A stretch of 64,000 nucleotides of DNA from positions 10,805 to 74,804 of the forward strand of contig CALBMH010000001.1 of assembly GCA_937896365.1 (NCBI GenBank), written 5' to 3'. The DNA comes from an uncultured Alphaproteobacteria bacterium (lineage in GTDB: Bacteria > Pseudomonadota > Alphaproteobacteria > Paracaedibacterales > JAKBAR01). The translations under genes were made by a program, and so were the position numbers. The notes beneath the pieces are model-generated. The model was not told the origin of the DNA, searched no databases, and saw only the letters and a program-made list of their open reading frames with translations. Position 1 is the stretch's first letter; every line of letters begins with the position of its first letter. Of the stretch, positions 6,870 through 56,816 are shown piece by piece.

Positions 6870-8033
6870 ATGCGAGCCTTTTTATCATCGTCCAAACTAC
6901 TGGTACTTTTTCTGACAGTGGCTTTACCCTTAGTATTAACAGGATGCAACGAAGAAAAGGTAGGAGAGAAGAAAGAGGAAAAGAAAAAAACGGAGGCACC
7001 AGCTGCTCCTAAAAAAGAAGAAAAGAAAGCTGAACAGCCTAAAAAATCTGCTCAAAATTTCAAACTTGACCAAGAACCTGACGAGCCCGCCCTCGCAACC
7101 CTTCTAAAACTCGATCCAAACCACGTTGTTGCCCGCGTTGAGGGGGAAGAGATCACCATTGCGCAACTCATTGAAGCGGTTAAGTCTTCTCCGGATCAAA
7201 TCAAGAGTCTACCTCTCTCTAAAATATATACATCTATGGTGAAACGTCTGCGTGATATGCACGCCCTCGTGAAAGCGTCGGCAAAAGCAGGTGTTGATAA
7301 GATCGCTGACGTACAAAAGAAAATCCAAGAGGCCTCAGATGCTGTGAAAGTAAAGCATTTCGTTGATGAAAAAATGAGTGCAAAAATCACACCTGAGTTC
7401 CTCAAAAAGCAGTTTGATGAATTTATGAAGGTTTACAAAAAAGACGGGAAATCTGAAAAAGAGTTTCGCCTTATGGTAGCCATTGTTAAGGATAAAAAGT
7501 CTGCCGAGGATGTCTTGTTGCGCGTAAAGAAAGGTGAGAAGTTCGAGGATCTCGTAATGGAGGTATCCACCGATGATAAGGTGAAAGAGACCAAAGGTGA
7601 GCTCGGCTATGTGCGTTTTAGTGAACTTCCAAAAGAGCTTGCTGAGAAAGTCCAAAAAGCAGCAACCGGGGTTATTGTGGACTCCGCCATTGAATTGGGT
7701 AAAGACAAGTGGGCTGTCTTCAAGAAAATGGATCAGCGGGACGTACCTGACCCAACCTTTGAGGAAGTGGCACCTGATCTAAAGAAAGTCGTAATGCCAC
7801 AGTTCTTCAGCGAAGTTCTCGCCGATGTTCTTAAAGAGACAACATCCGAAATCATTGACTATAAAACCGGTCAACCTATGGATGAGAAGGCTGAAGAAGC
7901 GAAAGCCAAAGCAGAGATTGAAAAAACGGAAAAAGCTTCAAAGGCGCCTTCCTCCGACGATTCCAAAGCACCTCTTGATGCGTCGAAGAAAGGTGATAAA
8001 AGCTCAACCCCAATAGCCAAACCATCTGCTTAA
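6870..8033 (+). CDS. parvulin-type peptidyl-prolyl isomerase lipoprotein (SurA/PrsA-like)
   Basis: A signal peptide with lipobox LTGC is followed by a Lys/Glu-rich linker. A PpiC-type segment follows (FRLMVAIV..KKSAEDVL..KKGEKFEDL..ELGYV). An ATG at 6870 follows an in-frame TTG at 6867. Confidence 0.7.
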   Translation: MRAFLSSSKLLVLFLTVALPLVLTGCNEEKVGEKKEEKKKTEAPAAPKKEEKKAEQPKKSAQNFKLDQEPDEPALATLLKLDPNHVVARVEGEEITIAQLIEAVKSSPDQIKSLPLSKIYTSMVKRLRDMHALVKASAKAGVDKIADVQKKIQEASDAVKVKHFVDEKMSAKITPEFLKKQFDEFMKVYKKDGKSEKEFRLMVAIVKDKKSAEDVLLRVKKGEKFEDLVMEVSTDDKVKETKGELGYVRFSELPKELAEKVQKAATGVIVDSAIELGKDKWAVFKKMDQRDVPDPTFEEVAPDLKKVVMPQFFSEVLADVLKETTSEIIDYKTGQPMDEKAEEAKAKAEIEKTEKASKAPSSDDSKAPLDASKKGDKSSTPIAKPSA

Positions 8034-8056
8034 CCCTTAATCTATACCAGAGGTCT

Positions 8057-8086
8057 ATAAACCCCGGGGGCTCTCCCGGGGTTTAT
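8057..8086 (+). terminator. stem-loop downstream of the PPIase gene, probable intrinsic terminator
   Basis: AAACCCCGGG (8059-8068) pairs perfectly with CCCGGGGTTT (8075-8084) around a 6-nt loop. Flanking A-T pairs extend the stem. The downstream tail (TGTTTCT) is only moderately T-rich. Confidence 0.55.
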
Positions 8087-8107
8087 GTTTCTAAGGAAAT
8101 CTTCCTC

Positions 8108-8620
8108 TTACTTGATCGTGTTTATATTAATATAGGCTGCTGCCTTAGGATTCTTTTCTAATGCTTGGATGAGCTCCTTTTTTGTTGTCTTAACAGTCAT
8201 TTAATCGATCTTTGTTTGAAGATAAGCATCTTTCAAAAAGTCTTCCCCATCTTTTAACACGGATTCTTTAAGATTCTTCCCACCAAATATGCATTCGCCC
8301 AAAGCAAACAATTTCCGCACATCTCTCAGACCCGTCATGGTGACTGTGAAATTTCTATGTTCTGTGTTTTCTATCTGAGTCCCTCCCCAAAGAGGAACGC
8401 TTCCTTATTGGGGTAAAACAAAATGATTTCTGTTTCTGACTTATCCTTAATTGCTTGAAGGACTTGGTCTTTTAGATCCAATGGAGCAGCAGATGCAGCA
8501 GAGTCATCGTTAGTCACAGTTGTAGACATTCCTGCCCCTATTGCGTAAGATGCGACGTATAAAAAAACCTACCCCCCACAAAATATATTGTTTATAGTAG
8601 TGACTTGATGACTTAATCAT
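8108..8620 (-). pseudogene. decayed gene of unknown function (envelope protein remnant)
   Basis: The minus strand yields four collinear short reading segments in different frames or split by stops. They are MIKSSSHYYKQYILWGVGFF.., (Y)VASYAIGAGMSTTVTNDDSAASAAPLDLKDQVLQAIKDKSETEIILFYPNKEAFLFGEGLR*, MTGLRDVRKLFALGECIFGGKNLKESVLKDGEDFLKDAYLQTKID* and MTVKTTKKELIQALEKNPKAAAYININTIK*. The first frame break sits at a G6/T7 homopolymer pair. No ORF of 60 aa or more exists across 660 bp. Confidence 0.4.
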
Positions 8621-8694
8621 GGTGTTTCCTAATCATTACTAAGTACATAGCACACGTCTTAGTCTCTTATAAATAGATTAACAAGTGATTAAAA

Positions 8695-9123
8695 ATGCTC
8701 AAAAAAGAACGCGTTATGATGAAAATAATGACAGTTGCCGCTGCTGTTTTACAAAATAGGAATGGTTGTGTTCTTCTCACACGCCGTCCTGATAACAAAC
8801 CCTACCCAGGATTGTACGAGTTTCCGGGTGGGAAGATCGAAGTGGGCGAGCGCCCAGAAGAAGCTCTCCAAAGAGAACTTTTTGAGGAACTTCATCTTTT
8901 TGTCCCCATTGATAGCATGAAGCCTCTGACTTTTGTGAGCTACACCTATCCCCAATATCATGTGATTCTCTTACTGTACCTTATTCGGCAATGGACCGGT
9001 GAGATGCTCATGAAGGAAAATCAAAAAGGATACATCTGGACAAACGTCGGAAGTCTGGATACTCTTCCTCCCCTACTCCCAGCCAACGAAGGTCTGCTAG
9101 AGACTCTTCAAAAATACCTATAA
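8695..9123 (+). CDS. mutT: Nudix hydrolase, MutT-like (8-oxo-dGTP diphosphatase family)
   Basis: A canonical Nudix box is present: GGKIEVGERPEEALQRELFEELHL. The product is about 130-142 aa. The start is ambiguous among Met 1, 8, 9 and 12. Confidence 0.8.
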   Translation: MLKKERVMMKIMTVAAAVLQNRNGCVLLTRRPDNKPYPGLYEFPGGKIEVGERPEEALQRELFEELHLFVPIDSMKPLTFVSYTYPQYHVILLLYLIRQWTGEMLMKENQKGYIWTNVGSLDTLPPLLPANEGLLETLQKYL

Positions 9124-9191
9124 ACTTGAGATAATCGGACGGAGGTCCTTCAACTTCTTAGATGTATGATAGTAGGAGAAGTTGTTCCCTT

Positions 9192-10231
9192 TTAATCCTC
9201 TATCTCTGCAAATTTAAGCAGTGTAATGGGAGGGACAAGACCAATATTTTCATAAGTGGATTTAGAAATAAGGATAGAAAAGCGCGATAGCCTTTCATAC
9301 GGAATGGTCGCTGGGTCTTTCTTATTGATCAAAATCTCGTAAGCTTTAAAACCCGCAAAGGCACCCACATTAATAAACTTACTAATCATGCCTATCAAAG
9401 GTTTCTCATTCCAATAAAGGGATTCTGTCGAAGCAAATGTAGGTATTTTTAAACGATTAGCAGCCCCAATAAGCTTAGAAGAATGATGGGATACAAATGT
9501 ATCAGCAGGTATATATATAAAATCCACTTTGAAGGTATGGGCTTTAAGAACAAGTTCTATAATTCGGTTTGCATCAGCTTTTTTATCTGAAAGAGGAATA
9601 GGAAGATTTAGAATTTTTATACCTTTTCTTTCAGCAGCCATGCTGAATGCTTCTACTTGAATAACAGAATTTGTCTCGTCTGGATTGTAGATAACGGCGA
9701 TAGTCCTTGTATCTCTTTTGTAAAAAAGAATTGTATTGAGTTGCGCTTCAACAGGTGCAACATGATTAACCCCTGTCACATTGCGTCCCGGAGTATCAAG
9801 ATTTTTGATAATATTTGCGTTCACAGGATCTGTTACAATGACGCTAATGATAGGGATATCCCAAATATAATCATCTTTAGGCTGAGTTATTTTTCCTGCT
9901 ATTTCCTCACAGGCAGGTGTACCCCAAACATAAATGAGGTCTGGCTTCATTTCCCGTATTTCAGGAATAAAACCATGACACCGTACCCTGTCGCCCTTAC
10001 AGTCTCTTGTAAAAACATCAAATTTGATATTTTTTCTTTTCAAATAGGCAATAAAGCCTTTTTCAAGATCTGTTGGGCCATCCCAAAGCACCATATAGAG
10101 ACGAAAAGTCTTATCACAAAGGGTCGCCTCGAGGCATGAGCATGAAGCCCCCATTAAACCACAGTGAATGTTAATGTTTAAGACAATGCAGACTACGGCA
10201 AGAAGAACATTTCGTACGATAAAGCGTATCA

Positions 10232-28804: not shown

Positions 28805-30796
28805 CTAGCGTTTAGGCGGTCCGTACATATCATCATGCTTGCCAAAAGCACGTTTGAAGAGGTGATTGAGGATGACGTTGAAAGATTCAGCTTTAGGCGC
28901 GTTATTAAAACGCCCTGTATAAAGGAAACGGATAATATGATCGCGTTGATCGAGAGTCAAATCGATAAAATGCAAGCGAGCACTATCAGATGTGCAATGC
29001 ATAATCTTAGCTGGAATTTTTGCTCCATCAATATCCAGATGCACGAAGCTATTTTGAACGTAAGGACAACTTCCTGTAATATGAGCCCCAGAAAGAGACA
29101 TATCTTCAATTTTAATACCCACTTGTTGCCCATCTATACATATCCTTGAAGGATGATAAACAGGAAAACGCTCCTCTTGGCGTCGCCTAGGGTGCTCAAC
29201 ACTCAAAAAAATCATCAGAAGTAAAATAAGGCAATTAAAGACTGACCACGAAGCTGCAATGGGGAAAAATGCATTCGAGGAGTTATTACTGATGCTTGTA
29301 TTGAGGCTAATAAGAATACCTCCAAGAGTAAGCATTAAAAGAATGAAGGAAACCCAGAAGGAATAAGGATGATAAAAACGCTTTTTTGAGTTATTTGCAA
29401 ACCGTCCTTTAGGTGTTACGCCAAATCCCTTTGAATAGGGATCAAAAAGACTATTAATAACAGTTGGAAGAACGTGGATAGCGTTAAGCGTATTACTTGC
29501 TGTATTAATCAATGGAACAAAGTGATAGGGCATAATCCACATTTCATAAGCGAAATTGAAAAGAATTACAGGCAGTTGATAGTTCAAAAGAACACTATAG
29601 TGATCAAGGTAAACAGAAGGAACCCCCGTCCACAGAAAAACGATAGGAATAATATGAGCCATAATGCGTGTAACGGGGCTAAAAAGCCAATAGGTTGGAA
29701 AGAAGATAAAACGATGAATAAAGCTAAGATTAGGACCAAGTGGTCCCATTTTGCTGTAAAAAGCTTGAATCGTTCCGCGGCACCAGCGCTCACGTTGAGT
29801 CATAAGGCTTGCGAGCTCTTCAGGAGCAATGCCTTGACTCAGTTTTTCATTGAGATAGCGTGTGACATACCCATGCCGTAAAAGAGTGAGGGTTGTGAGC
29901 AAATCTTCTGTGATAGACGATGTTGGCACGCCACCGCATTCTTCCAACGCTGTACGCCTTGCAAGGCTTGAAGACCCGCACCAAAAGGCTGCGTCCCAAC
30001 CATCACGCGCTGGCATCATCACATCAAAAAAAAGACGCTGCTCGTCAGGCGTGGTGTTATGAAGATGAAGATTTGCTTGGACAAAGTCCTTATTAAAAAA
30101 ATGTTGAGGTGTTTGAACAATAGCCACTTTTGAATCGGTAAAAAAACCTATGGTACGATAGATAAAGTTGCGATGGGGAATAAAATCCGCATCTAATGTC
30201 ATGACAAATTTCCCATTTGTGAGCATCGATGCATGATTAATATTCCCTGCCTTAGCATGGACGTTGTCAGCTCTACGAATGTAGCCCGCACCTTTTTGCA
30301 TACAAAACTCACGCAGCCAATCACGTTTTCCGTCATCAAGAACCCATATCTTGAGCTTATCCTCTGGCCAATCAAGATGAATCGCCCCTACAATGGAACG
30401 TTCAACCACATCAATACCTTCATTGTATGTAGGAATGAAAACATCCACTGTAGGGAGCATGTGAGGTGGCAGAGCTCTAAGAACTTTTTCATAGCGGTTT
30501 GCTTCTTCACTCCTATCCGTATTCTTGCAAAGCAGAAGATAAAAACTCGATGTCTCAATAAAGATGAAAATCTCATTTATAAAGCAAACCCATATCCAAA
30601 CGCCCTCAAAAGAAGGCATGGGAGCTATCAAGATACTACTGCCTATACGCCAAATAATATAACGGACAAAAAGAACTATCGCAAAAAAAGCAATATACGT
30701 TCTGTGATGCCCGTTATGATGATCAAGGCGAGGAAAAACCAGAGCAATGACAAGAAGAACAAGAAAGGTAAAAAGAAGATTTTCTAATAAATGCAT
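28805..30796 (-). CDS. BcsA-family processive beta-glycosyltransferase (GT2) with C-terminal PilZ domain
   Basis: N-terminal TMs precede FIPTYNEG, VLDDGKR, HAKAGNINHA, LDADFIP, VQTPQHFFNKDF, FWCGSSSLARR, TEDLLTTL and QRERWCRG (QxxRW). More TMs follow. The PilZ motifs are RRRQEER (RxxxR) and DMSLSG (DxSxxG). Confidence 0.85.
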   Translation of the reverse strand: MHLLENLLFTFLVLLVIALVFPRLDHHNGHHRTYIAFFAIVLFVRYIIWRIGSSILIAPMPSFEGVWIWVCFINEIFIFIETSSFYLLLCKNTDRSEEANRYEKVLRALPPHMLPTVDVFIPTYNEGIDVVERSIVGAIHLDWPEDKLKIWVLDDGKRDWLREFCMQKGAGYIRRADNVHAKAGNINHASMLTNGKFVMTLDADFIPHRNFIYRTIGFFTDSKVAIVQTPQHFFNKDFVQANLHLHNTTPDEQRLFFDVMMPARDGWDAAFWCGSSSLARRTALEECGGVPTSSITEDLLTTLTLLRHGYVTRYLNEKLSQGIAPEELASLMTQRERWCRGTIQAFYSKMGPLGPNLSFIHRFIFFPTYWLFSPVTRIMAHIIPIVFLWTGVPSVYLDHYSVLLNYQLPVILFNFAYEMWIMPYHFVPLINTASNTLNAIHVLPTVINSLFDPYSKGFGVTPKGRFANNSKKRFYHPYSFWVSFILLMLTLGGILISLNTSISNNSSNAFFPIAASWSVFNCLILLLMIFLSVEHPRRRQEERFPVYHPSRICIDGQQVGIKIEDMSLSGAHITGSCPYVQNSFVHLDIDGAKIPAKIMHCTSDSARLHFIDLTLDQRDHIIRFLYTGRFNNAPKAESFNVILNHLFKRAFGKHDDMYGPPKR

Positions 30797-30882
30797 AGAT
30801 CAAACCTCCCCTTTATGCCTTGCATTCTTACTCTCCTACACTCTCCTATTCTATCCATTGCACACATTACATTGCCATCTCC

Positions 30883-32106
30883 CTACAGCCTTCCCCTCAT
30901 CCCTTCGAAGGTCACTTCCCCTGTTCGCCCTACATGGCAAAAATCAGCAGCACTTTCATAAAGATCTTCTTTATCAATTTCAATGATCACTTGCATTTCA
31001 TGGGGACGGCGGATAGGGGCCACCCCTGCAACAGATTTCTCTGGTTCAGCAAAGACAGCGCCCCCCCGAATATGCGTAATCATCCCATGAATTGGCTTTG
31101 TTCCCCCCCGTAGTTTGACCTTGACTCTTTCACCGATTTTTATCTTCTCGAAATAACCTTCATGGATTGTCATATCGATAAACACTTTGCTGCAGTCAAT
31201 AACATCAACAACTTTTGTTTTCTCATCAATATGCGTTCCCGGCATGACATAGGACCGCAGAACAACACTAAATTCTGATGCTCGAATATCGCGCTTTTCA
31301 AGCCCATTCAAACGATCTGTCTCTATTTGAATGCGCTCACTGATGACTTGAATCCGCGTTGTGTATTCGTTAATGCGCGAATCAATATCAGCGACCCGTA
31401 TACGTATTTCATCAATGCGCTGGTCTTGATAGGTGACTTCGCTACGTCCGTCTTGGTTAATAAAGATCCCTTTGCGAATAAAATTAAGTTCTACAACCAA
31501 ACGATCAAGCTCCAACTTAGCCTGATCAGCGACTTTCGTTGCACGTTCCGCTGTGAAAAAGGTACTATCCAAACTGGAAACGGAAATCGTACCTTTCTTA
31601 TAGAGTTCCTTTTTTCGATTGAGCAGGCGTGATGCCTCGGTCACAGAGTCGATAAGCTCTTGATGGCGTTTTTCCACCCGCTTAATATCATACTCCAAGC
31701 GCTCTGCTCTTGATGATAAATGACTTTTCTTACTCTCTTCGAGTTCTTCTTTGAGTTTTATAAGATTTGTTTTTTCTTCTTCAAGGCTGTCAATTCGTTC
31801 TTTTAGCGATTCTTTTTCGACATTGAGTTGCCCCACTGTAGAACGGTCAACGGTCGTGTTCACAAACTCAGCAATAATATCCCCTTCATGGAGCTCTGTT
31901 CCAATGGGGGGTGGAGCTTTTGTTACAATGCCATCAATCGGTGTGGTAAGCGTTACAATACGGGCGCTGACAACAGCATTAGAACTATACGTAAAAAACA
32001 AGTAGGGAAGATAGATAGCTGCTACAACACAAAGCAGCCCGATACCAAACGCAAGGCGTAAGATCTGGAACTTTGTAAAGCCAAAGCCTTCGGGAGCTGC
32101 AGACAA
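30883..32106 (-). CDS. HlyD-family periplasmic adaptor (membrane-fusion-like) protein
   Basis: An N-terminal TM (LAFGIGLLCVVAAIYLPYLFF) is followed by a lipoyl-like segment (ARIVTLTTPIDGIVTK..GDIIAEF). A long coiled coil and a beta-barrel-like C-terminus follow. It lies immediately upstream of, and co-oriented with, the GT2-PilZ gene. Confidence 0.75.
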   Translation of the reverse strand: MSAAPEGFGFTKFQILRLAFGIGLLCVVAAIYLPYLFFTYSSNAVVSARIVTLTTPIDGIVTKAPPPIGTELHEGDIIAEFVNTTVDRSTVGQLNVEKESLKERIDSLEEEKTNLIKLKEELEESKKSHLSSRAERLEYDIKRVEKRHQELIDSVTEASRLLNRKKELYKKGTISVSSLDSTFFTAERATKVADQAKLELDRLVVELNFIRKGIFINQDGRSEVTYQDQRIDEIRIRVADIDSRINEYTTRIQVISERIQIETDRLNGLEKRDIRASEFSVVLRSYVMPGTHIDEKTKVVDVIDCSKVFIDMTIHEGYFEKIKIGERVKVKLRGGTKPIHGMITHIRGGAVFAEPEKSVAGVAPIRRPHEMQVIIEIDKEDLYESAADFCHVGRTGEVTFEGMRGRL

Positions 32107-32878: not shown

Positions 32879-34255
32879 TCATGCAAAGAGAGGTTCTTTC
32901 AAGGAGGCTGAATAATTTTCTCCCAATGACTGGACTAAAAAGTCGATCACATCATGAACCAAGGATTCGTCCTCACTTTGAGCCATCAAGCGAAGGCTTC
33001 CTTCAGTACCCGAGACACGCACGACAAGGACACCTTGGTGACCAATCATTTCCTCAGCTTGCCGAATAATATTCTTTGAAGCGTCACTCTCCATGGGCAT
33101 AAATGCACCGAAAGGAAGAGTATGCGTCACTTGTGGAAGAGGCTCATAAGGATTACCAAGGACACTTAAAGGTTTACCTGATTGAATGAGGATTGCCGCA
33201 ACTTGAAGCGCTGTAATAAGTCCATCAGCTACAGGGGAAAAATCGTGTAAAAGAATATGACCGGATGGTTCTCCCCCTGTGTTCATTCCCTCTTGAAACA
33301 AAGAGGCAAGGACATAACGGTCACCCACTGGGCTACGAACAAGAGCAAGCCCAAGAGTCTTTAGGTAGCGTTCTAATCCTCTGTTCGCCATCACCGTTGA
33401 AACGATCCCCCTGCCCTTGAGTTTACCCTTTTCATAGAAGTATGGAGCAATGAGAGCCAGTATCTGGTCCCCATTGACACTCTCCCCCTTCTCATCCAGT
33501 AACACAAGCCGGTCAGCATCGGCATCTAGAACCACAGCAAAGTCAGCTTTATGCTCAATCAGAGTTTTTTTTGCAAGGTGTATATCTGTCGTTCCACATT
33601 TAACATTTGTGTTAAACCCATCCGGATGCACTCCCACAGGAATGATATGTGCTCCCAATTCTGAAAAGATGGTAGGCGCCACAGTGTAAGCAGCACCCTG
33701 GGAACAATCTAAAACGATCTTAAGACCATCCAATTGAAGCGTCTTTGGAAACGTCCCTTTCACAAACTCTATATAACGCCCTGTGGCATCACCAAGGGTT
33801 CTTACTTTTCCAAGATTTCTATAATTCGGGAGAGGAAGAGATACGATCATCCGTTGCTCAATGGCAAGTTCCACATCATCAGAGAGCTTATATCCATCGG
33901 GCCCCAAAAGCTTAAGGCCATTATCGGGAAAGTAACCGTGAGAGCCTGTGATCATGACACCTAAATTGGCACGTAACGACCTTGTAAGCAAAGAAACGGC
34001 CGATAGAGGAATAGTTCCCAGCAAGATAACATCAAACCCCATAGACGTGAATGCTGCTTCAAGCGCTCCCTCAATCATATCTCCTGAAACACGGGTATCC
34101 TTTCCAATAACCACGGTACGTGGATAACTTCCCCGAGTAAAAAAAGATGCTGCTGCTCTTGCCAATCGTATGATCGTTTCAGCCGTCATAGGCGGTACAT
34201 TCACACGCCCCCGAATGCCATCTGTTCCAAAAAGACATCGCTGAGTGAGCATCAT
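32879..34255 (-). CDS. phosphoglucosamine-mutase paralog (alpha-D-phosphohexomutase family), last gene of the pga cluster
   Basis: It is collinear with the canonical GlmM at 55467-56816, sharing FGTDGIRG, VVIGKDTR, DADADR, GGEPSGH and VSGTEG. The phosphoserine loop reads GVMITGSHGYFPDNG instead of GVMISASHNPYPDNG. Its ATG overlaps the pgaC stop (ATGA). Confidence 0.8.
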   Translation of the reverse strand: MMLTQRCLFGTDGIRGRVNVPPMTAETIIRLARAAASFFTRGSYPRTVVIGKDTRVSGDMIEGALEAAFTSMGFDVILLGTIPLSAVSLLTRSLRANLGVMITGSHGYFPDNGLKLLGPDGYKLSDDVELAIEQRMIVSLPLPNYRNLGKVRTLGDATGRYIEFVKGTFPKTLQLDGLKIVLDCSQGAAYTVAPTIFSELGAHIIPVGVHPDGFNTNVKCGTTDIHLAKKTLIEHKADFAVVLDADADRLVLLDEKGESVNGDQILALIAPYFYEKGKLKGRGIVSTVMANRGLERYLKTLGLALVRSPVGDRYVLASLFQEGMNTGGEPSGHILLHDFSPVADGLITALQVAAILIQSGKPLSVLGNPYEPLPQVTHTLPFGAFMPMESDASKNIIRQAEEMIGHQGVLVVRVSGTEGSLRLMAQSEDESLVHDVIDFLVQSLGENYSASLKEPLFA

Positions 34256-35514
34256 TGGCGTTCAGAACTCCAGTCAACTTTTTTCTTATGTTCACGCCAT
34301 AAGATGGGCATGGCTAACCACGTGATAACCACCATAAAAATCCAATAAAAAGCAGGGTAAAGAATTATATAAGGAAAAAATCGCACAACATCACGATCGT
34401 GCTTAATCTCAATAAGCCCACCTATGGTAAGTTGTAGCAAGCTGAAACTCATCATAATAACAATCCATTGATAATTAAAAATAAGATGCTCGTGATAAGG
34501 AAAATAAGAAGAAAAGGAACTTAGATAAGATGATGAATTTGAATAAAAAGAAGCAAAGAACTTCGCAGACTCAAAAAAAACGATAAGTCCATAAAGAGTA
34601 TTCCACAATATGGAAATAATTGCCTCATAGAAAATTGTCCACATACGACGCATAGACCATTGTTTTAAGATACCTTTATGCACTCTTAAAACCTGCATGA
34701 GCCCTCTTGCCCATCGCAGGCGTTGCTTGAAAAAACTTCTCAAAGTATCAGGCACATGCATCCATACAATCGCCCGTGGTTCATAGCGCACATCCCAGTG
34801 TTTCTTTTCAAGGCGCCAGGTCACATCAATGTCCTCTGTATACATATCTGGACGGAAACCGTTAATACTAAACAGGGCTTCTTTTCTAAAAGCAGCAACG
34901 ATGCCGGAAACTGTGATAATACGCCCCCATATTCTTTGGGAGCGTCGCAATAATCCAATAATGGACGTAAAATCAATAACCTGAATGCGCGTCAAGAAGT
35001 TTGTCGTATTCTTTACCCTTGGGTGCCCTGTGACGGCCCCCACACGAGCATGTTGAAAGTGCCATGTCAAATGTTGCAGCAAGTCTGGTTCTGGTTCTGC
35101 ATCCGCATCAAGAACAACGATAACCTCCCCATTAATAAGAGGAAGAGCGTCATTAAGAGCAAGTGACTTACCCTGATTGATCTTCTTATCAATAAGGCGT
35201 ATGTTCGCGTTTTTTAAAAAGGGACTCAGCTTTTGAAACGTCCCATCTGTGGAACCGTCATTGATGACAATGATCTCGAAGTTTGGGTAGGTCATCTGAG
35301 ACATGGCTAAAAGAGCACTTTCAATCAAGCGCTCTTCGTTATACACGGGAACGAGCACAGAAACTCTCGGTACATGTTTTGGAAAGACTTCATGATGCAT
35401 TTCTTCCCAACGAATTTTGTAGGTTACAGAAAAAACGAGCCACATGACAGACGTAACAATGGGATAAAACGCAACGAAAATAAAAATGGCTGTGTATATG
35501 TCTGCCCACATCAT
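34252..35514 (-). CDS. pgaC: poly-beta-1,6-N-acetylglucosamine synthase (GT2)
   Basis: PgaC-typical stretches are VLVPVYNEE, VINDGSTDGT, VLDADAEPEPD, TEDIDVTWRL and QRLRWARG, with flanking TMs. The gene sits in a pgaA/pgaB context. Confidence 0.88.
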   Translation of the reverse strand: MMWADIYTAIFIFVAFYPIVTSVMWLVFSVTYKIRWEEMHHEVFPKHVPRVSVLVPVYNEERLIESALLAMSQMTYPNFEIIVINDGSTDGTFQKLSPFLKNANIRLIDKKINQGKSLALNDALPLINGEVIVVLDADAEPEPDLLQHLTWHFQHARVGAVTGHPRVKNTTNFLTRIQVIDFTSIIGLLRRSQRIWGRIITVSGIVAAFRKEALFSINGFRPDMYTEDIDVTWRLEKKHWDVRYEPRAIVWMHVPDTLRSFFKQRLRWARGLMQVLRVHKGILKQWSMRRMWTIFYEAIISILWNTLYGLIVFFESAKFFASFYSNSSSYLSSFSSYFPYHEHLIFNYQWIVIMMSFSLLQLTIGGLIEIKHDRDVVRFFPYIILYPAFYWIFMVVITWLAMPILWREHKKKVDWSSERQ

Positions 35515-35900
35515 TTACTGCTCTTCACTTTTAAAAATGTGTAATATTTTACTTGTCCTTCTTTATCACAATCCACAACAATGATTTTATTTTTTTTAAG
35601 TTTCGCTATATTTGCAACGACTTTATACCCCAGCAAATCTCTTTCATACTCCCAAACTGCTTGAGGTATTTCCTTTCGTGGTTTAAGAGTCCTATGAAGA
35701 AATAAGTGACGCCGTATCCACGTGAGAACACCCACTAAGAGAAGGAAGACTTCCGCAGCCACAATAACAAGAATGGTTTTATAGAAATGTTTCTGTGATA
35801 AAGACGCATAACAAACACCTGCTATATACAAAGACCAACAACAAGAAAGGGCGCAGACATGCTCGCATAGCTTTAAGTAAGATAAGCGAGGTCTTTTCAT
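35511..35900 (-). CDS. PgaD-like small inner-membrane protein (tentative)
   Basis: The product is 129 aa with two N-terminal hydrophobic spans and a basic cytoplasmic tail ending KLKKNKIIVVDCDKEGQV. By eye this is comparable to the E. coli PgaD C-terminus (..LQKSHRMSVHFTSQGQI). Its stop overlaps the pgaC ATG (ATGA). Confidence 0.5.
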   Translation of the reverse strand: MKRPRLSYLKLCEHVCALSCCWSLYIAGVCYASLSQKHFYKTILVIVAAEVFLLLVGVLTWIRRHLFLHRTLKPRKEIPQAVWEYERDLLGYKVVANIAKLKKNKIIVVDCDKEGQVKYYTFLKVKSSK

Positions 35901-36081
35901 CGGATTCTTCCTCGAGTTGGCATCTGACTCTCAGACAATAAAAAGTGGAACGTAGGAAAACCATGACAAACCCCTTGACCCCACGCAATTAACATTGAAA
36001 TGACCTTTTGTCGCAGGAATACGCCAGAGATACAACATTGAATGATAAATATATGAATGTGTGCATCTTTCTCTCTTTTCC

Positions 36082-38013
36082 TTATGGTAAGTGCACAAAG
36101 CTTTGTAAAGATATCCCTTCCTTTATAAGAGAAATATCCGGGTGATTTTGAAAAAGGTTATCTGGATAGAGACTAAAGTGGCGTGTTCCCTTCGCCGATA
36201 AGTCTCTTAACTGTTCCAAAAGAATTTTGGTATCGATGGGGGCGTTTTTATCGCGCCAGTTAACTGTTTGGAGTTCAAAAATAGTTTTCTGGAGTCCTGT
36301 GGGATTGTTTTTAACCTTTTCATGCAATGCATCAAGCCACGCAGAAGGATCTTCAGCCTTTTCCATATAGGGCATAGCCATTAAAGCGACATAGTCGTAG
36401 GCATAAAGAAAGTCGTGGAAATTTTGGGCATACCATGCTTCACTCTCAGGAGAGAGGACAAGATCCGCAAAGAGGCTACGTGTCGTTTGAATTGTTGGCC
36501 GGAAAACCTTTACTTTTTCAATGATTTCTTTTGTAAAGTCGATAAGAGATCTGCTCTTCCAACGGCTCCATTTTGAAAAAAGAACAGGGTCGTTTTTGAT
36601 CGTATCTATAGAATCTGGAAAGCCTGCCTTCTTCATCGCTTCCACAGCAAAGGGGGACCAATCCTCAAAGTCTGTTAGAATATCATCATGAAAAGCAATA
36701 CCATCAATAGGGGCGTTGAAGGCTAAACTTTCGTATATTCCTAAAATCTTTTGCCGTGCTAGAGGATGAAAAATCGACGATCTTATGTACTGTTCGCGGT
36801 CAATACACTGACAATCGCTCCCAGGTATGAGGGATTTCACAAGAAGATCGTCATTCTTAAAATCAAAAGCCATAAGAGGAAGCCACGCGAAAACTTTCGC
36901 ATGAACCCGCGTTGCTATTTGCCAGCAAATCCTATTAAAAATATCGCTTCTTATAGGAAGATGGGAATTATGAAAATACAGGCTCTCTGCATAACCCTTA
37001 GCATTTATGTCTGAAAACGCCTGGAGAAACACTGTATTAATTTGGTACTGGTATAAGCGTTCAATTAGTGCATCGATATTTTTCTCCGTTTGCTTGGGGT
37101 CAGGATCATAGATGTGATCGAGGTCAATACGCACAGCTCGTAGAGTACTTTCTTGTGTGTCTTGGAAATTTTTCAAAGCAGAGATAAATGCAGAAAGAGA
37201 TTGCTCTTGCGTGTAATAACAGCGACTGACCGCATCAAGATGAGTGACATCCTTATTATAACCCTGGCCATCTAGAGTGAGAAAAACCTTTATTCCCATC
37301 TTTTTAGCCATATCAAGAGAAACCTGATTATAACGACCATAGGGCCAGACCATCAAACGCGGATTCTTTCCAGTTTTCTTCAAAATACGTTCTTGGTTCA
37401 TTCTTAAATCTTCTTCGATACGTATCTTATAATGATCGAAAGACTCATAGGCTTCCTGTTCTTTATTATAAAACCGTGTGACAAGGGCTGCCTGGGTCGT
37501 TCCTTGGGGATTTGCCACGATGCCTTTATGCAACGCAAAGGTGTGCGACGCGATCTCAACAAGTCCGGAATCAGCCATTTCCTTTATTTGACTCCATGTC
37601 AAGAATTTTTCAGCAGAGATGGTTTTGGAACCGTAGATAATAGTCTTCCCCTCTTCCTTTGCATCAATCCAACTGCCCACAACTCCGAGTACGGCTGGAA
37701 AGTTGAACGTTTTTAAAAGTGGGTAAACAAACGTATAAAAACTTTCGTATCCATCATCAAATGTTAAAAGAATGGATTTATCTGGAAGGGTTTTCTCTCC
37801 AGCTTGGGCTTTCAGGAGATCGTCAGGATGAATAGGATGATAACCATTTTCTTTAATCCATTGGAAATGCCCCACAAGATCACCCCTCGTCACAGCGTCA
37901 TAATCTACCTGATCCGCTGTTAAAACAACATCGTGATAAGCAATTGCCATAAAGTGATTTTCAGCTATCCCTGCTTCAACGATCAAAAAAATCCAGACAA
38001 AAAAATAAAACAT
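36082..38013 (-). CDS. pgaB: PNAG N-deacetylase/hydrolase PgaB-like
   Basis: A signal-like N-terminus precedes a CE4 deacetylase motif (LLTFDDGYESFY). A roughly 330-aa C-terminal glycoside-hydrolase-like domain follows. The size (643 aa) and position between pgaA and pgaC fit PgaB. Confidence 0.8.
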   Translation of the reverse strand: MFYFFVWIFLIVEAGIAENHFMAIAYHDVVLTADQVDYDAVTRGDLVGHFQWIKENGYHPIHPDDLLKAQAGEKTLPDKSILLTFDDGYESFYTFVYPLLKTFNFPAVLGVVGSWIDAKEEGKTIIYGSKTISAEKFLTWSQIKEMADSGLVEIASHTFALHKGIVANPQGTTQAALVTRFYNKEQEAYESFDHYKIRIEEDLRMNQERILKKTGKNPRLMVWPYGRYNQVSLDMAKKMGIKVFLTLDGQGYNKDVTHLDAVSRCYYTQEQSLSAFISALKNFQDTQESTLRAVRIDLDHIYDPDPKQTEKNIDALIERLYQYQINTVFLQAFSDINAKGYAESLYFHNSHLPIRSDIFNRICWQIATRVHAKVFAWLPLMAFDFKNDDLLVKSLIPGSDCQCIDREQYIRSSIFHPLARQKILGIYESLAFNAPIDGIAFHDDILTDFEDWSPFAVEAMKKAGFPDSIDTIKNDPVLFSKWSRWKSRSLIDFTKEIIEKVKVFRPTIQTTRSLFADLVLSPESEAWYAQNFHDFLYAYDYVALMAMPYMEKAEDPSAWLDALHEKVKNNPTGLQKTIFELQTVNWRDKNAPIDTKILLEQLRDLSAKGTRHFSLYPDNLFQNHPDISLIKEGISLQSFVHLP

Positions 38014-38017
38014 AAAC

Positions 38018-40492
38018 TTAGAACCTTATATTAAAATTAGCGAAGAGTGTTGTGGAATACTCGTGGACGCCATCGTACGTGGAACGTTTACGACGAATGC
38101 CGTAGCTCAAATAATACCAATTCTGGTAGTCCAAAATGTGCTCGTAAGAGACACCAAACACCCATGCTCTCCTATACCCTTTTTCCCAATACAATCCCAA
38201 GGCAGGCGTGAGACTATGCTTGAAAGAGAACTCGTAATGACGGTAAAGAGTTTGATTGAAAATAGGAGACACAGACACATAAGAGTCTTTAAGGGGACTA
38301 TAATAGGGAACATCATTTATTTTTGACTTACGCCAACCCAGGTCGATTCTGAGATCTGTCGTTTCTCTAGGTCTCTCAACAAGCTGACCTTGTATGTATG
38401 TACTCCCACCCTGCCATGCGTTGCGTCCTGTAAATTCTTGATCAAAAAACGAGACACCAAACTTAAGAGCATTGTTATAATAATACCCCGCACCTATCTG
38501 GAAATAGTGAGAAGAAATCTTATTCGCAAGTGCTCTTCCGGGTGTTTCAAGGCTGTGAAGATCAACGACCCCAGAAAAAGACCACTCATCAGAGGGAGTA
38601 CAATTCAAAACCAACTTTGTCCCAACCTGTGAATGACCTGCATAATGATCACTATGAAATGCCATCGTTGTATTTAATGATGTAGATGTGTACTGAACAC
38701 CCGCCCCCTTTGAAACGTAAGACAAAGATCCTTCTGGAAATTCTCCTGTAAGATATCGGCCGACAAGAAAGGCTCTAAAATTATAAGCAATGGGCCTTGA
38801 ATAAAAACTTCCCTCGAGAGAAGATGTACCTTTTGAACTCAGTCCCCCTTTCTCAAAACTATACCGTGACTCAATCTCCATTGAGTTGTAAGCATTCCAA
38901 CTTTTTTCTAATTTTTTGATACTTTCATCAGAGGGGTAAGAACTTTTTAGCATTTCTAGAAGTTTTTCCGCTTCCTCGTACTGGGAAAGCGACATAAGCG
39001 CTCCCACACGACTTACCTTTAACCCAAGATTTTCTTTATTATTCGTTTGGCCAATATCAAACTCTTTTTTCGCTGCTCTTGGAAGACCCCTTGCAAGATA
39101 CGTTTCTCCCAAAAGTCTTCGAAACTGGGTATTATAGGGAGCTATCTTGATGATATCCCTTAATTTCTCTTCTGACTTTGATAACAAATTCGCATACAAA
39201 AAAGAAGCATGATAGCATTCTTCAAGATTTTGCCGACTTTCATTTGACCGTTTCATTCCGCTAATGGTCGTTAATTTTTCCTGGGCACCCCGTTGATTTT
39301 TTATAAAAGTCAAACTACTCTTCAGTTCTTCGTTCTCAAGGAGGGTATAATATATCCCCTTGATAGAATCGATGCTTGATGGAGACTTTCGAAGAACGAA
39401 AGAGAAAATCGTTTTTGCCTCTCTCAAAAAGCGTAAGGTTAAATACGAATCACCCACAGCTTCTAAAGACTGTAGAGGAATGTCCTCATTCGATTTTCCC
39501 TGCAATAAAAGCTTTTCATAAAGACGAAGAGTATCTTCGTGGCGCCCTCGCCGGTTATAGACAATGAGCAAATCACAAAGATTATTAAGAATTTGCCTCT
39601 CGTCTTTTTTCTGTGAGGCTTGATCCGTGAGTTTGTCAATAGCACGATCAAAATGACTATAATTTTCAGGGTATTCTGACGCAATTCCCCATTTAATATC
39701 CAAGGCTGCTTGATTCGATTTGATTTTTTCTAAAAGGTCTTTTCCTAAGATTTGAGTCTTATCTTCTTGGTCACGATACTGTTCGTAGATCCCCATGTGT
39801 TCTTGAGAATGCAGCATGAGAATATTTCTTGCCTTCTTATCCTTGAACTTTTCTGCTTCGTAGGAAGCAAGCGCCTCATTCAATGCTTTTGCCCTTCCTT
39901 GGATTGCTTCTTTATCTGTGGGAATTTTCTCTAATGCCTCTTCGTAGTGCTTTAAAGCATCAACATAAAATCCCATGCGCATGTAAGAAAGAGCTATAAG
40001 ATTTAGGACTTCTACACCCTTATGAGGGTCATCTTTAAAACGCAGCAATAGATTAGGAATTTCGTACGGATTATTTTCTTGAAATAAAACAAAAGCAAGA
40101 CCTATATAACCATCAATGTCACCAGGTTTCTTCTGCAAAAGAAAACTATAAAAAAATCTTGCTTGATGGGTATACTCAAGCTCCCTGCAATTCCTCGCAA
40201 GCACTTCGATAACGTACAGTGGGAGGTGTACAATGGGTTCTGTTACCCTCTTTCTAAAAAGAGAATAAGACTCCTTGTGGCGACCTTGCCACGTTAAAAC
40301 ACTCATATAATCGTAAACAAGCTGTTCATACCACCCCTTGCTGCGTATAATGTAATCAAATATCGAAAAAGCCTCATCATAGTGTCCTTGGCGTGCAAGT
40401 TCTACGGCATGATGATGTTCCCTCAAGTCGTCATTACCATAACAATAAGAAATGCATAGAATAAAATATGAAAATACAAGTACTCTTAACAT
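38018..40492 (-). CDS. pgaA: PNAG export outer-membrane porin with TPR domain, PgaA-like
   Basis: A signal peptide is followed by many TPR-like helical repeats. The C-terminal region has alternating beta-strand character and ends in ..FANFNIRF, the OMP terminal Phe signature. The 824-aa product is encoded immediately upstream of pgaB. Confidence 0.75.
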   Translation of the reverse strand: MLRVLVFSYFILCISYCYGNDDLREHHHAVELARQGHYDEAFSIFDYIIRSKGWYEQLVYDYMSVLTWQGRHKESYSLFRKRVTEPIVHLPLYVIEVLARNCRELEYTHQARFFYSFLLQKKPGDIDGYIGLAFVLFQENNPYEIPNLLLRFKDDPHKGVEVLNLIALSYMRMGFYVDALKHYEEALEKIPTDKEAIQGRAKALNEALASYEAEKFKDKKARNILMLHSQEHMGIYEQYRDQEDKTQILGKDLLEKIKSNQAALDIKWGIASEYPENYSHFDRAIDKLTDQASQKKDERQILNNLCDLLIVYNRRGRHEDTLRLYEKLLLQGKSNEDIPLQSLEAVGDSYLTLRFLREAKTIFSFVLRKSPSSIDSIKGIYYTLLENEELKSSLTFIKNQRGAQEKLTTISGMKRSNESRQNLEECYHASFLYANLLSKSEEKLRDIIKIAPYNTQFRRLLGETYLARGLPRAAKKEFDIGQTNNKENLGLKVSRVGALMSLSQYEEAEKLLEMLKSSYPSDESIKKLEKSWNAYNSMEIESRYSFEKGGLSSKGTSSLEGSFYSRPIAYNFRAFLVGRYLTGEFPEGSLSYVSKGAGVQYTSTSLNTTMAFHSDHYAGHSQVGTKLVLNCTPSDEWSFSGVVDLHSLETPGRALANKISSHYFQIGAGYYYNNALKFGVSFFDQEFTGRNAWQGGSTYIQGQLVERPRETTDLRIDLGWRKSKINDVPYYSPLKDSYVSVSPIFNQTLYRHYEFSFKHSLTPALGLYWEKGYRRAWVFGVSYEHILDYQNWYYLSYGIRRKRSTYDGVHEYSTTLFANFNIRF

Positions 40493-46338: not shown

Positions 46339-47487
46339 TTGTTGTTTTATTTTTTTTGTAGATCAGTACCCCCTTATGTTCTATGGCCCTCTCTCAGTGA
46401 GAAGGAAAAGCTGTTAAGCTTCCCATCCTTGGTGGTTATTGACCCTGACTTTGTGGAAGGGAAAAGGTTTCCCTTGAAAGATTTGTCTTACTATCGATGG
46501 GCGCTTCTCACATACTCAGTGAAGAAACAACAATGTATGGCAGGTTTTTTTACAGCGAGCCAGGTTTTAAAGGGATCTTTCTTACACTGTGTCAGTGTCA
46601 AGGAAGAAGGATTAGAGTCTTACCTTATCAGTTTTTATGAAAAGGGTGTTGCTCTCCCTAAGATCTTCTTTTTAGATGATTTGTTCTTTCAAGCAATCAA
46701 GAGTGCTCGCCTTCCCATGGGGCATTCCATCAATCAGTGGGTTTTTTTATTACGCAAAAAAAAATCTTTCTATTTTTTGAGCTGTTTTCATGATAACGCC
46801 TTGGTTTTTAAACGTACATTTGATAGTTCATCCTGTCTCATGGAGGAGATGACTGCGTCCCAAGCTTATCTGAAGCGTTTTGGATATAAGAATCATCAGA
46901 TTCAGGTTTTTTTCTTTGCCAATCAAGCGGAAGATTTCCCAATAATGGAAAACATTATTTGGAAGCGTGTTCCTTACAATCAGGATGACGTGATTCAAGC
47001 GGGGTTAAGATCGTCCCAGCGACTCATTTTTTCACTCCCTCACACGCCATTACTCAACAAAGCATGGTATTTCTCCTTGCTAAAGCGTGTTGGCGCCTTT
47101 GTTTTAGCTCCTTTGTGTGGGCTCTCTTTCTTTGCTTTTCTTTCTGTTCACTATGCCTATCATGAGGGAACTTTTGAAAAGCTCCGGAGGGACTTGGAGA
47201 AAGCGCAAGAACTTCCTAAGGACTACGCTCTTTTTCAGCAGCTGGAAGTGCGGCAAAAGCTCTTATTTGACGACGTTTTTTGGTCTAAACTGTCATCTTT
47301 TCTGAAAAACAGGGTGTTACCTGAGAGTATTGATGCCAATTTTATCGAGAATTCAGTCAAGCTTTCTTTTTCCAGTCCGTTAGATTTATCGTCTTGGACG
47401 CCGTTAAAAAAGAATTTTCAAGATTATCGTGTAACCATAATGCCACGATCAATTGCCTTTTTTAATAACCAAGCAAAGGCGCGGTAG
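46339..47487 (+). CDS. hypothetical bitopic membrane protein, GspL / PilM-PilN-fusion-like architecture
   Basis: About 245 aa of soluble N-part is followed by a single TM (VGAFVLAPLCGLSFFAFLSVHYAY). About 110 aa follow, beginning with a coiled-coil-like EGTFEKLRRDLEKAQEL. There is no catalytic motif. An RBS plus ATG at 46323 is out of frame by one T of a T8 run. Confidence 0.5.
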   Translation: MLFYFFCRSVPPYVLWPSLSEKEKLLSFPSLVVIDPDFVEGKRFPLKDLSYYRWALLTYSVKKQQCMAGFFTASQVLKGSFLHCVSVKEEGLESYLISFYEKGVALPKIFFLDDLFFQAIKSARLPMGHSINQWVFLLRKKKSFYFLSCFHDNALVFKRTFDSSSCLMEEMTASQAYLKRFGYKNHQIQVFFFANQAEDFPIMENIIWKRVPYNQDDVIQAGLRSSQRLIFSLPHTPLLNKAWYFSLLKRVGAFVLAPLCGLSFFAFLSVHYAYHEGTFEKLRRDLEKAQELPKDYALFQQLEVRQKLLFDDVFWSKLSSFLKNRVLPESIDANFIENSVKLSFSSPLDLSSWTPLKKNFQDYRVTIMPRSIAFFNNQAKAR

Positions 47488-55466: not shown

Positions 55467-56816
55467 ATGCTGCTGAGGAAGTTTTTCGGAACGGATGGTG
55501 TACGCGGCCAAGCGAACACGGGGGCTATGGTCCCCGACATTATTATTAAACTCGCTATGGCAGCAGGCTCTCAATTTATTCGGGGTGATCATCGTCATAC
55601 GGTTGTGATTGGCAAGGACACACGTTTGTCAGGCTATATGGTTGAGTCTGCCTTGACTTCTGGATTTACGTCCATAGGGTTTGAAGTGGTTCTCGTAGGG
55701 CCTCTTCCAACACCTGCTGTAGCACTTTTGACCAAGTCTTTGCGCGCAGACCTCGGCGTAATGATCTCTGCCTCCCATAATCCCTACCCCGATAACGGTA
55801 TCAAGTTTTTTGGACCCGATGGATACAAGTTAGCTGACGTGACAGAGTGCGCCATTGAGTGCCGTATGGATAACGGTGATTTTGAGCTTGCAAGCTTTGA
55901 CCATATCGGAAAGGCTAAAATTCTCCACGATGCCACAGGACGTTATATCGAGTTTGCTAAGTCGACATTTCCCAAACATTTGCGTCTTGATGGTCTTAAA
56001 ATTGTTGTGGATTCTGCAAATGGTGCTGCTTACAAAGCAGCACCCACCGTTCTTTGGGAGCTTGGAGCGGAGATTATTGCTGTTGGCAATCAACCAAACG
56101 GTACGAACATTAATGAGGGGTGTGGCGCAATGCACCTTGATCTTGCTAAAAAAACGCTTTTGGAAAGAAGTGCCGACCTTGCAGTCGTACTCGACGGAGA
56201 CGCAGATCGCATTGTCATGATTGATGAGAAGGGCGATGAGCTTGATGGCGACAAAATTTTGGCTCTGACAACAGCTCATTTTATTAAAACGAAACGCCTT
56301 TCAGGTACATCCATTATCGCAACACAGATGTCTAATCTTGGCTTAGAACGCTATATCAAAAGCATCGGACTCAATCTTGTTCGAACACAAGTAGGCGACC
56401 GTTATGTGATTGATATGATGCGTAAGCTCCATTGCAATGTAGGGGGGGAACAATCGGGTCATATTATTCTTCATGATTACACAACAACAGGTGATGGTCT
56501 TATTGCAGCGCTCCAAGTCCTCGCCATTATGCAACGAGAAGATCAGCCTCTGTCTGAACTGGCCCATATCTATGAAACCGTACCCCAAGTCCTTCATAAC
56601 TTGCGTCTGTCATCGCCCGTCAATTTACAAGAATCAACGATTCAAGCGCTCATCAAAAAAGCCGAAGAAAAAATTGGCGATGCGGGCTATCTTCTTGTTC
56701 GTGCTTCAGGCACAGAACCTGTCATTCGCCTCATGGCGCAGGGTGATGATAGGGATGTCCTCAATACGGTCATTTCTGACTTGGCGGATCATCTCCAAAA
56801 AGAAAGGGCTGCTTGA
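55467..56816 (+). CDS. glmM: phosphoglucosamine mutase (canonical copy)
   Basis: GlmM-typical stretches are FGTDGVRG, GVMISASHNPYPDNGIKFF, DGDADR, GGEQSGH and ASGTEPVIR. It lies immediately downstream of ftsH. Confidence 0.93.
   Translation: MLLRKFFGTDGVRGQANTGAMVPDIIIKLAMAAGSQFIRGDHRHTVVIGKDTRLSGYMVESALTSGFTSIGFEVVLVGPLPTPAVALLTKSLRADLGVMISASHNPYPDNGIKFFGPDGYKLADVTECAIECRMDNGDFELASFDHIGKAKILHDATGRYIEFAKSTFPKHLRLDGLKIVVDSANGAAYKAAPTVLWELGAEIIAVGNQPNGTNINEGCGAMHLDLAKKTLLERSADLAVVLDGDADRIVMIDEKGDELDGDKILALTTAHFIKTKRLSGTSIIATQMSNLGLERYIKSIGLNLVRTQVGDRYVIDMMRKLHCNVGGEQSGHIILHDYTTTGDGLIAALQVLAIMQREDQPLSELAHIYETVPQVLHNLRLSSPVNLQESTIQALIKKAEEKIGDAGYLLVRASGTEPVIRLMAQGDDRDVLNTVISDLADHLQKERAA

Follow-up and report, generated by a model that had tools for sequence, protein, structure and literature searches.

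A membrane-fusion protein gene and a GT2-PilZ synthase gene

We analyzed a two-gene locus carried by a 64-kb stretch of DNA from an uncultured alphaproteobacterium (contig CALBMH010000001.1; hereafter, the window), in which a gene for a membrane-fusion protein (MFP) lies upstream of a gene for a GT2-PilZ synthase, both on the minus strand. The MFP gene (30883-32106, minus strand) encodes 407 aa from a TTG start, as given by the open reading frame (ORF) call, and the N-terminus of its product lines up with the N-termini of the homologs. The synthase gene (28805-30796, minus strand) encodes 663 aa and was characterized using its ORF, Pfam, NCBIfam, a tree and an AlphaFold 2 (AF2) model. A first-pass annotation, made from the sequence alone, had placed the two co-oriented genes at these positions and had listed the motifs HAKAGNIN, VQTPQHFF, FWCGS, TED, QRERW, RRRQEER and DMSLSG, all of which were recovered in the translation. 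The 86-nt spacer between the two genes (30797-30882, minus strand), read directly from the sequence, holds a strong Shine-Dalgarno motif, GGGGAGG (30805-30811, minus strand), 8 nt before the ATG of the synthase. Promoter and terminator scans gave no more hits than shuffled controls did and were disregarded as evidence, except for the lack of any terminator-like site in the spacer, because of which the two genes are most likely expressed as one transcript.

The synthase matched the Pfam GT2 families and, at residues 538-626 (28919-29185, minus strand), the PilZ family PF07238 with 45.6 bits against a cutoff of 22.5. It stayed below the cutoffs of the NCBIfam cellulose-synthase equivalogs, with 406.4 bits against 699.1 for TIGR03030 and 310.8 against 992 for NF008558. 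The nearest solved relatives were BcsA of E. coli (9.5e-78) and BcsA of R. sphaeroides (4e-65). The AF2 model, built from 62 homologs (pLDDT 91.4, pTM 0.90), could be superimposed on BcsA structures with a TM-score of 0.87-0.88, including the PilZ β-barrel (residues 544-610), and the whole chain is thus predicted to fold like BcsA. In this model, three N-terminal transmembrane (TM) helices are followed by a GT-A domain, interface helices, C-terminal TM helices, the PilZ barrel and two short C-terminal helices. Three N-terminal TM helices have been described for CrdS and BgsA, versus four in BcsA (PMC6821405). Compared with the BcsA-BcsB-BcsC systems of R. sphaeroides and E. coli, the window enzyme thus shares the fold, the catalytic motifs, the gating loop, the PilZ domain and the salt-bridge residues detailed below, but it has one N-terminal TM helix fewer, lacks the long C-terminal extension and falls under the equivalog cutoffs.

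The catalytic, gating and PilZ residues of the synthase were invariant or nearly so across the 62 homologs. The catalytic residues D154/D155, D202/D204, E297/D298 and Q334-W338, which belong to the DDG, DAD, TED and QRERW motifs, align with those of R. sphaeroides BcsA. Among them, QRERW (residues 334-338; 29783-29797, minus strand) corresponds to the Q(Q/R)xRW motif of processive GT2 enzymes and was invariant in alignments A1 and A2. The acceptor-site motif FWCGS (residues 271-275; 29972-29986, minus strand) replaces FFCGS of BcsA and FCCGS of BgsA, and its Trp is fixed within the window enzyme's own clade. The gating loop FGVTPK (residues 458-463; 29408-29425, minus strand) follows the pattern FxVTxK, with F458, V460, T461 and K463 invariant. 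In the PilZ domain, the RxxxR motif (R539-R543; 29168-29182, minus strand) aligns to R580/R584 of R. sphaeroides BcsA, and D565/S567/G570 of the DxSxxG motif (D565-G570; 29087-29104, minus strand) align to D609/S611/G614. In addition, E326 aligns to E371 of R. sphaeroides BcsA, so that R539 and E326 match the autoinhibitory Arg580-Glu371 salt bridge of that enzyme.

The MFP matched HlyD_3 in Pfam and the EmrA subfamily in NCBIfam. Its AF2 model (pLDDT 84.6) shows a TM helix at residues 12-37, lipoyl-type strands, a long hairpin made of helices 89-170 and 176-270 (about 80 residues each) and a β-barrel at residues 298-400, with no membrane-proximal domain. The best structural match of this model was EmrA (4tko, 2e-19), followed by EmrAB-TolC (8zar). 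No PilZ match was found in the MFP, which exposes about 11 cytoplasmic residues ahead of its TM helix. The pair can be likened to Alg8/Alg44 of the alginate system, where a GT2 synthase is also combined with an MFP-like protein under the control of cyclic di-GMP (c-di-GMP); in that system, however, PilZ is carried by the MFP-like Alg44, whereas in the window pair it is carried by the synthase. Taken together, the Pfam matches, the AF2 models and the structural matches bear out the first-pass description, in which a BcsA-like GT2-PilZ enzyme has an HlyD-type protein rather than BcsB as its partner.

The same annotation had reported that bcsB, bcsC and bcsZ were missing, and none was found in the searches of the window. 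A profile search of its six frames returned no BcsB-like or CrdC-like ORF, and a scan of 38 window ORFs (most of those of at least 150 aa) gave no match to the TolC, BcsC or BcsZ families. These absences, for BcsB, BcsC, BcsZ, TolC and CrdC alike, apply to the 64-kb window and not to the whole genome. Within that scope, the synthase is accompanied by neither BcsB nor BcsC, in contrast to the BcsA-BcsB-BcsC systems.

A clade of synthases partnered with membrane-fusion proteins

BgsB/BgsA of Sinorhizobium meliloti (SMb20390/SMb20391) had been put forward as an analogy for the locus, and this analogy turned out to be true homology. The synthase and S. meliloti BgsA align over their full lengths with 41% identity (663 vs 664 aa, 2e-170), as do the MFP and BgsB with 27% identity (407 vs 410 aa, 2e-42). 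The two systems have the same gene order, near-identical protein sizes and the same three N-terminal TM helices, and their synthases belong to the same clade. The best plasmid-borne relatives were found on Sinorhizobium megaplasmids, where a gene annotated as HlyD is followed by a glycosyltransferase gene; these are bgsB-bgsA.

A look-up of the exact MFP sequence gave no more than a 9-kb ENA contig, on which the genes have the same order. A word-indexed search with the MFP gave only 18 relatives, and it was an exhaustive profile search that revealed its subfamily. The window MFP matched the family profile with E=1.6e-131, and the BgsB-type subfamily comprised 680 clusters at 50% identity (E<=1e-30), each aligned end to end. 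On these sequence matches, the MFP is a predicted periplasmic adaptor of the BgsB/CrdA/XcsB subfamily. Since this subfamily alone has so many clusters, the MFP-partnered export architecture appears to be widespread.

To place the synthase, we used a neighbour-joining tree of 104 synthases with 100 bootstraps, in which the CrdS sequence was taken from PMC6821405 (Fig S1) and from which Alg8 and HAS were left out as remote outgroups without bearing on the verdict. A clade of MFP-partnered enzymes including the window synthase, BgsA and CrdS was recovered in 100/100 bootstraps, and the BcsB-partnered and BcsB-fused enzymes fell outside it. The window enzyme belongs to a subclade of sequences from alphaproteobacterial metagenome-assembled genomes (MAGs), all with FWCGS, which received 100% support. 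The BgsA orthologs (loci L001, L004 and L005) form their own group, also with 100% support, apart from the FWCGS subclade. CrdS, with 30% identity to the window enzyme, falls in a subclade that has a third gene in its operons. A further, separate clade with 100% support unites the cyanobacterial synthases, which are 29-30% identical to the window enzyme. On this tree, the MFP-partnered synthases appear as one clade distinct from the BcsB-partnered BcsA. The first-pass annotation had envisaged that the GT2 domain might lie squarely among the described BgsA orthologs with an identical domain set; the tree agrees with this as far as the BgsA/CrdS family clade is concerned, but the enzyme lies outside the BgsA orthologs proper and its Pfam domain set differs from theirs.

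We then examined the surroundings of the synthase genes in a scan of species-representative genomes, for which ORFs were called and MFP and BcsB profiles were built; the loci collected, at least 80 and none of them from the source genome, are a sample. Counting neighbourhood look-ups of further loci as well, 29 loci from four phyla were informative, and in 27 of these the MFP gene was next to the synthase gene, either immediately upstream of it or with a single CrdC-like gene in between. Among the loci listed, 38 had BcsB downstream of the synthase or fused to it, and no sampled locus combined both an MFP and BcsB according to the profiles. The association held from the MFP side as well, as two distant MFPs picked arbitrarily were each followed by a GT2 synthase, of 644 or 664 aa. 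The MFP-synthase pair was present on Agrobacterium and Bradyrhizobium plasmids and in a Rhodospirillales locus, and it was accompanied by a GGDEF gene in Victivallaceae loci. Two cyanobacterial loci (L025 and L045) also carry the pair, with MFPs homologous to the window MFP (9e-18 and 4e-13). In two alphaproteobacterial MAGs, the MFP lies 11 nt upstream of the synthase, and one of them has two tandem synthase paralogs. In the planctomycete locus L092 (5809-11108), the MFP is split into ORFs of 251 aa and 105 aa, which suggests a frameshift or an assembly error, and the synthase is directly followed by a GH5 cellulase.

A relative of the window organism (L085, 8802-13971) carries an MFP and then two tandem PilZ-bearing synthase paralogs of 667 and 656 aa, and the contig holding the synthases P0022 and P0038 likewise has two paralogs. 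A 53%-identical synthase annotated bcsAI (L082, 10001-12007) stands alone, without a nearby MFP of the family; the region 1 kb downstream of it holds a C39-ABC secretion cluster, which has an adaptor of its own. Two candidate MFPs were rejected. A 431-aa gene near the solo synthase P0010 did not match the family profile and is part of a C39-ABC secretion cluster, and a 482-aa ORF upstream of the L002 synthase is an IMP dehydrogenase.

Precomputed PF07238 matches were present in 107 of the 120 best synthase homologs. Most of the MFP-partnered clade, the window subclade included, has kept the RxxxR and DxSxxG motifs intact; degenerate forms occur in the BgsA orthologs, CrdS and some further Rhizobiales subclades. 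Within a large clade spanning Alphaproteobacteria, Lentisphaerota, Planctomycetota and Cyanobacteria, most members combine PilZ with an MFP. The initial view that a PilZ gate with an MFP partner would be an unusual combination was therefore not upheld, and a precedent has been in the literature since 2018. As cited in PMC8892547 and PMC12430437, Maeda et al. (2018) described by experiment a cyanobacterial synthase with PilZ, XcsA (Tll0007), which works with an HlyD-like protein and a TolC-like exporter instead of BcsB and BcsC. The same reviews mention operons of the Synpcc7942_1398/1399 type, which pair synthase and HlyD-like genes. The Thermosynechococcus cellulose system XcsA (Tll0007)/XcsB (Tlr0903)/TolC (Tlr1605) thus resembles the window pair in having a PilZ synthase and an HlyD-like adaptor without BcsB or BcsC, Tll0007 being likened here by its description. 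The window synthase, however, belongs to another clade than those of the cyanobacterial systems, and cyanobacterial operons often add an endoglucanase, a gene with which the window pair is not provided.

Overall, the locus is a bicistronic bgsBA-type operon and an ordinary member of a described family that includes rhizobial BgsBA, Agrobacterium CrdAS and cyanobacterial XcsAB.

The c-di-GMP-binding domain of BgsA and the Crd components

BgsBA makes a mixed-linkage glucan whose synthesis is activated by c-di-GMP, and BgsA's C-terminal domain has been reported to bind c-di-GMP as a novel domain other than PilZ (PMC5567048). Our comparison agrees with the first-pass annotation in that BgsA has no detectable PilZ domain, with no Pfam PilZ match even at E<=1, whereas the window enzyme has a canonical one by both Pfam and motifs. 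The two C-terminal cytoplasmic domains are nonetheless positionally homologous. The BgsA C-terminus aligns column for column with the window PilZ domain, and carries KPRRLLQAF and SLSLDK where the window enzyme has RRRQEER and DMSLSG. Using hhalign on profiles all cut from one global alignment, the BgsA C-terminal domain (L001, 5923-7917) was matched to the PilZ region of the window clade (window 28805-29200) at 99.3% probability (E 6.5e-21), and this region was in turn matched to the canonical BcsA PilZ at 98.6% (E 5.7e-16). By contrast, the direct comparison of the BgsA domain with the canonical BcsA PilZ was undetectable, at 2.2%. Because the PilZ-intact members of the window clade link both domains by profile comparison, the c-di-GMP domain of BgsA is best read as a degenerate PilZ. 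Furthermore, BgsA is grouped, with 83% bootstrap support, with enzymes whose motifs are intact, among them a Victivallaceae protein, so that BgsA's loss of the PilZ motifs is a derived one. The window enzyme, which keeps both RxxxR and DxSxxG together with the Pfam match, differs from BgsA in this respect as it does in its separate subclade with 100% support and in having FWCGS instead of FCCGS.

CrdA and CrdC have been described as proteins of unknown function (PMC10819609). The crdS-like locus L087, with 80% identity to CrdS, has an upstream gene annotated as "multidrug transporter"; this gene is CrdA-like and matched the MFP profile (2e-83), as does the window MFP. From this match, CrdA is assigned to the same MFP subfamily as BgsB. 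Since CrdA belongs to the subfamily of BgsB, this suggests that curdlan may also be exported by an MFP/TolC route.

A protein of about 413 aa without Pfam match was encoded between the MFP and the synthase in three-gene variants of the locus (L016, L017, L019, L020 and L022, about 8600-9980 in each), and loci with this layout were seen in Pseudomonas, Ensifer, Bosea, Phyllobacterium and Bradyrhizobium. Its homolog in L087 lies after the synthase (6945-8225); the protein is the CrdC-like component in both layouts. The Agrobacterium CrdA/CrdS/CrdC system and the window pair hence share the MFP-partnered clade and the MFP profile, but no CrdC-like third gene is found in the window, the PilZ motifs of CrdS are degenerate, and most specificity-linked positions differ.

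Proposed mechanism, product and genomic surroundings

We propose that the locus encodes a c-di-GMP-gated, that is derepressed, processive β-glucan synthase with MFP export, to which we assign a probability of about 0.72; this figure is for the general mechanism and not for the linkage of the product. In the proposed mechanism, a c-di-GMP dimer would bind the PilZ motifs and break the R539-E326 salt bridge, which would free the gating loop. The synthase would then polymerise UDP-glucose and thread the growing chain through the channel that it forms in the membrane. Anchored by its single TM helix, the MFP would oligomerise around the periplasmic exit and use its long hairpin to dock on an outer-membrane channel of the TolC type, whose gene would lie outside the window. 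MFP and TolC would in this way replace BcsB and BcsC, and the product would be a linear β-glucan. The route across the outer membrane had previously been considered as unpredictable. BgsA, BgsB and TolC are all required for mixed-linkage glucan, and a BgsA-BgsB-TolC complex was proposed in 2026 (PMC13438883). Because BgsBA needs TolC and the window MFP is EmrA-like, TolC-type export of the window polymer can be proposed by homology.

Several observations weigh against the proposal as a whole or against parts of it. The adjacency of MFP and synthase is not universal, the loci L002 and P0010 having no adjacent MFP, and the window enzyme lies outside the BgsA ortholog clade. Among the 38 window ORFs scanned, there was no gene for TolC or another outer-membrane factor, and the third component of the export route is assumed. 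No diguanylate cyclase was identified in the window, where a search for GGDEF, EAL and HD-GYP motifs gave nothing credible. In addition, two specificity-linked positions are unique to the window enzyme, and the GH5 cellulase beside the planctomycete synthase hints at β-1,4 bonds in part of the family.

The polymer itself is not readable from sequence, as had been stated at the outset, and since the clade holds makers of different β-glucans, membership in it does not assign the product. To narrow the range of candidates, we compared the specificity-linked positions of PMC6821405 (Table S8), for which the reference was OCR-derived with small index shifts, so that only positions with the expected residues were used. 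The window enzyme carries the CrdS/BgsA residue wherever these two differ from BcsA (positions 249, 276, 298, 299, 302 and 357). Ten of the reliably mapped positions distinguish BgsA from CrdS, and at 9 of these the window enzyme has the residue of BgsA. The two unique positions are the Trp of FWCGS (versus Cys or Phe) and a Leu at position 376 of R. sphaeroides BcsA. Our leading guess for the product, weakly inferred and held with less than even confidence, is a mixed-linkage (1,3;1,4) glucan. As a guess, we would rank cellulose second and curdlan as the least likely of the three. A Gram-positive, PilZ-bearing synthase of mixed-linkage glucan is also on record (PMC10374906).

The alternative that fares best is a synthase of pure β-1,4 cellulose of the Xcs type, whose polymer would leave by way of HlyD and TolC, as it does in Thermosynechococcus. 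Cellulose synthases are indeed the best-matching relatives of the enzyme among solved structures and in NCBIfam, the architecture is the same as that of XcsA/XcsB as outlined in PMC12430437, the upstream MFPs of the cyanobacterial loci L025 and L045 are detectably homologous to the window MFP (9e-18 and 4e-13), and one relative has a GH5 cellulase downstream. We nevertheless consider cellulose unlikely, as the cyanobacterial synthases stand in their own clade (100% bootstrap) with only 29-30% identity, the window enzyme is under the CelA equivalog cutoff (406 vs 699 bits) and has the CrdS/BgsA residues at the positions separating these from BcsA, and no endoglucanase gene was found in the window.

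Given the two unique specificity-linked positions and the placement of the enzyme outside the BgsA orthologs, its product could also differ from that of BgsA. The FWCGS subclade might then make a β-glucan or another homopolymer with a linkage unlike those of cellulose, curdlan and alternating mixed-linkage glucan, which would be a fourth product type among MFP-partnered synthases; we regard this as rather doubtful.

A curdlan-type (β-1,3) synthase module is still harder to defend. CrdS does belong to the same MFP-partnered clade and a CrdA-like protein to the same MFP family (2e-83). Even so, the subclade of CrdS is another one, defined by the CrdC-like third gene, and the window holds no CrdC-like ORF; moreover, of the 10 positions separating CrdS and BgsA, 9 have a residue other than that of CrdS in the window enzyme, whose identity to CrdS is only 30%. 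Lastly, HlyD-family genes are common and the BcsB search covered the window only, but a canonical BcsA with BcsB and BcsC encoded elsewhere, beside an MFP from an unrelated efflux pump as a chance neighbour, is hardly credible when the MFP is a specific BgsB homolog and not a generic HlyD, the two genes are neighbours in 27 of 29 loci from four phyla and also when the test starts from the MFP, no sampled locus combines a BgsB-type MFP with BcsB, the enzyme is outside the BcsB-partnered clade with 100% bootstrap, its AF2 model has three and not four N-terminal TM helices, and no ABC, MFS or RND pump gene flanks the MFP.

The rest of the window is ordinary chromosome, with groES/groEL, ATP synthase, secA, ftsH, valS and ribosomal protein genes. 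Just upstream of the MFP-synthase pair and on the same strand, separated from it by a tRNA-Val gene and an HU gene on the opposite strand, lies a pga operon of unusual layout (32879-40492, minus strand). It consists of pgaA (38018-40492), pgaB (36082-38013), a 129-aa ORF with two TM helices (35511-35900), pgaC (34252-35514) and an extra, second glmM (32879-34255), all on the minus strand. The 129-aa ORF has no family match and overlaps the start of pgaC; it is possibly a PgaD analogue set before pgaC. The glmM of the operon, which overlaps the pgaC stop, is 53% identical to its phosphoglucosamine mutase paralog at 55467-56816 (plus strand). Both exceed the TIGR01455 cutoff, with 475 bits for the pga-operon copy and 561 bits for the other, and the active-site loop of the former is divergent (TGSHGYFPDNG, versus SASHNPYPDNG in the other copy). 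The pga-operon glmM may serve as a dedicated precursor supply for poly-N-acetylglucosamine. Elsewhere in the window, two ORFs on the plus strand, of 422 aa (704-1972) and 382 aa (46339-47487), had no Pfam match, and the former gave only a faint serralysin-like match (E 9e-5), far under the cutoff.

These results bear first on naming. The correct name for the locus is a BgsBA/CrdAS-type c-di-GMP-gated β-glucan synthase with an MFP adaptor, and the labels "cellulose synthase BcsA" and "multidrug efflux adaptor" should be avoided. Should the FWCGS subclade prove to make a fourth product type, the window system with its intact PilZ would be a natural test case for the coupling of c-di-GMP gating to MFP/TolC export. 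Besides correct naming, the main wider value of the analysis lies in the family-level links among BgsBA, CrdAS(C) and XcsAB.

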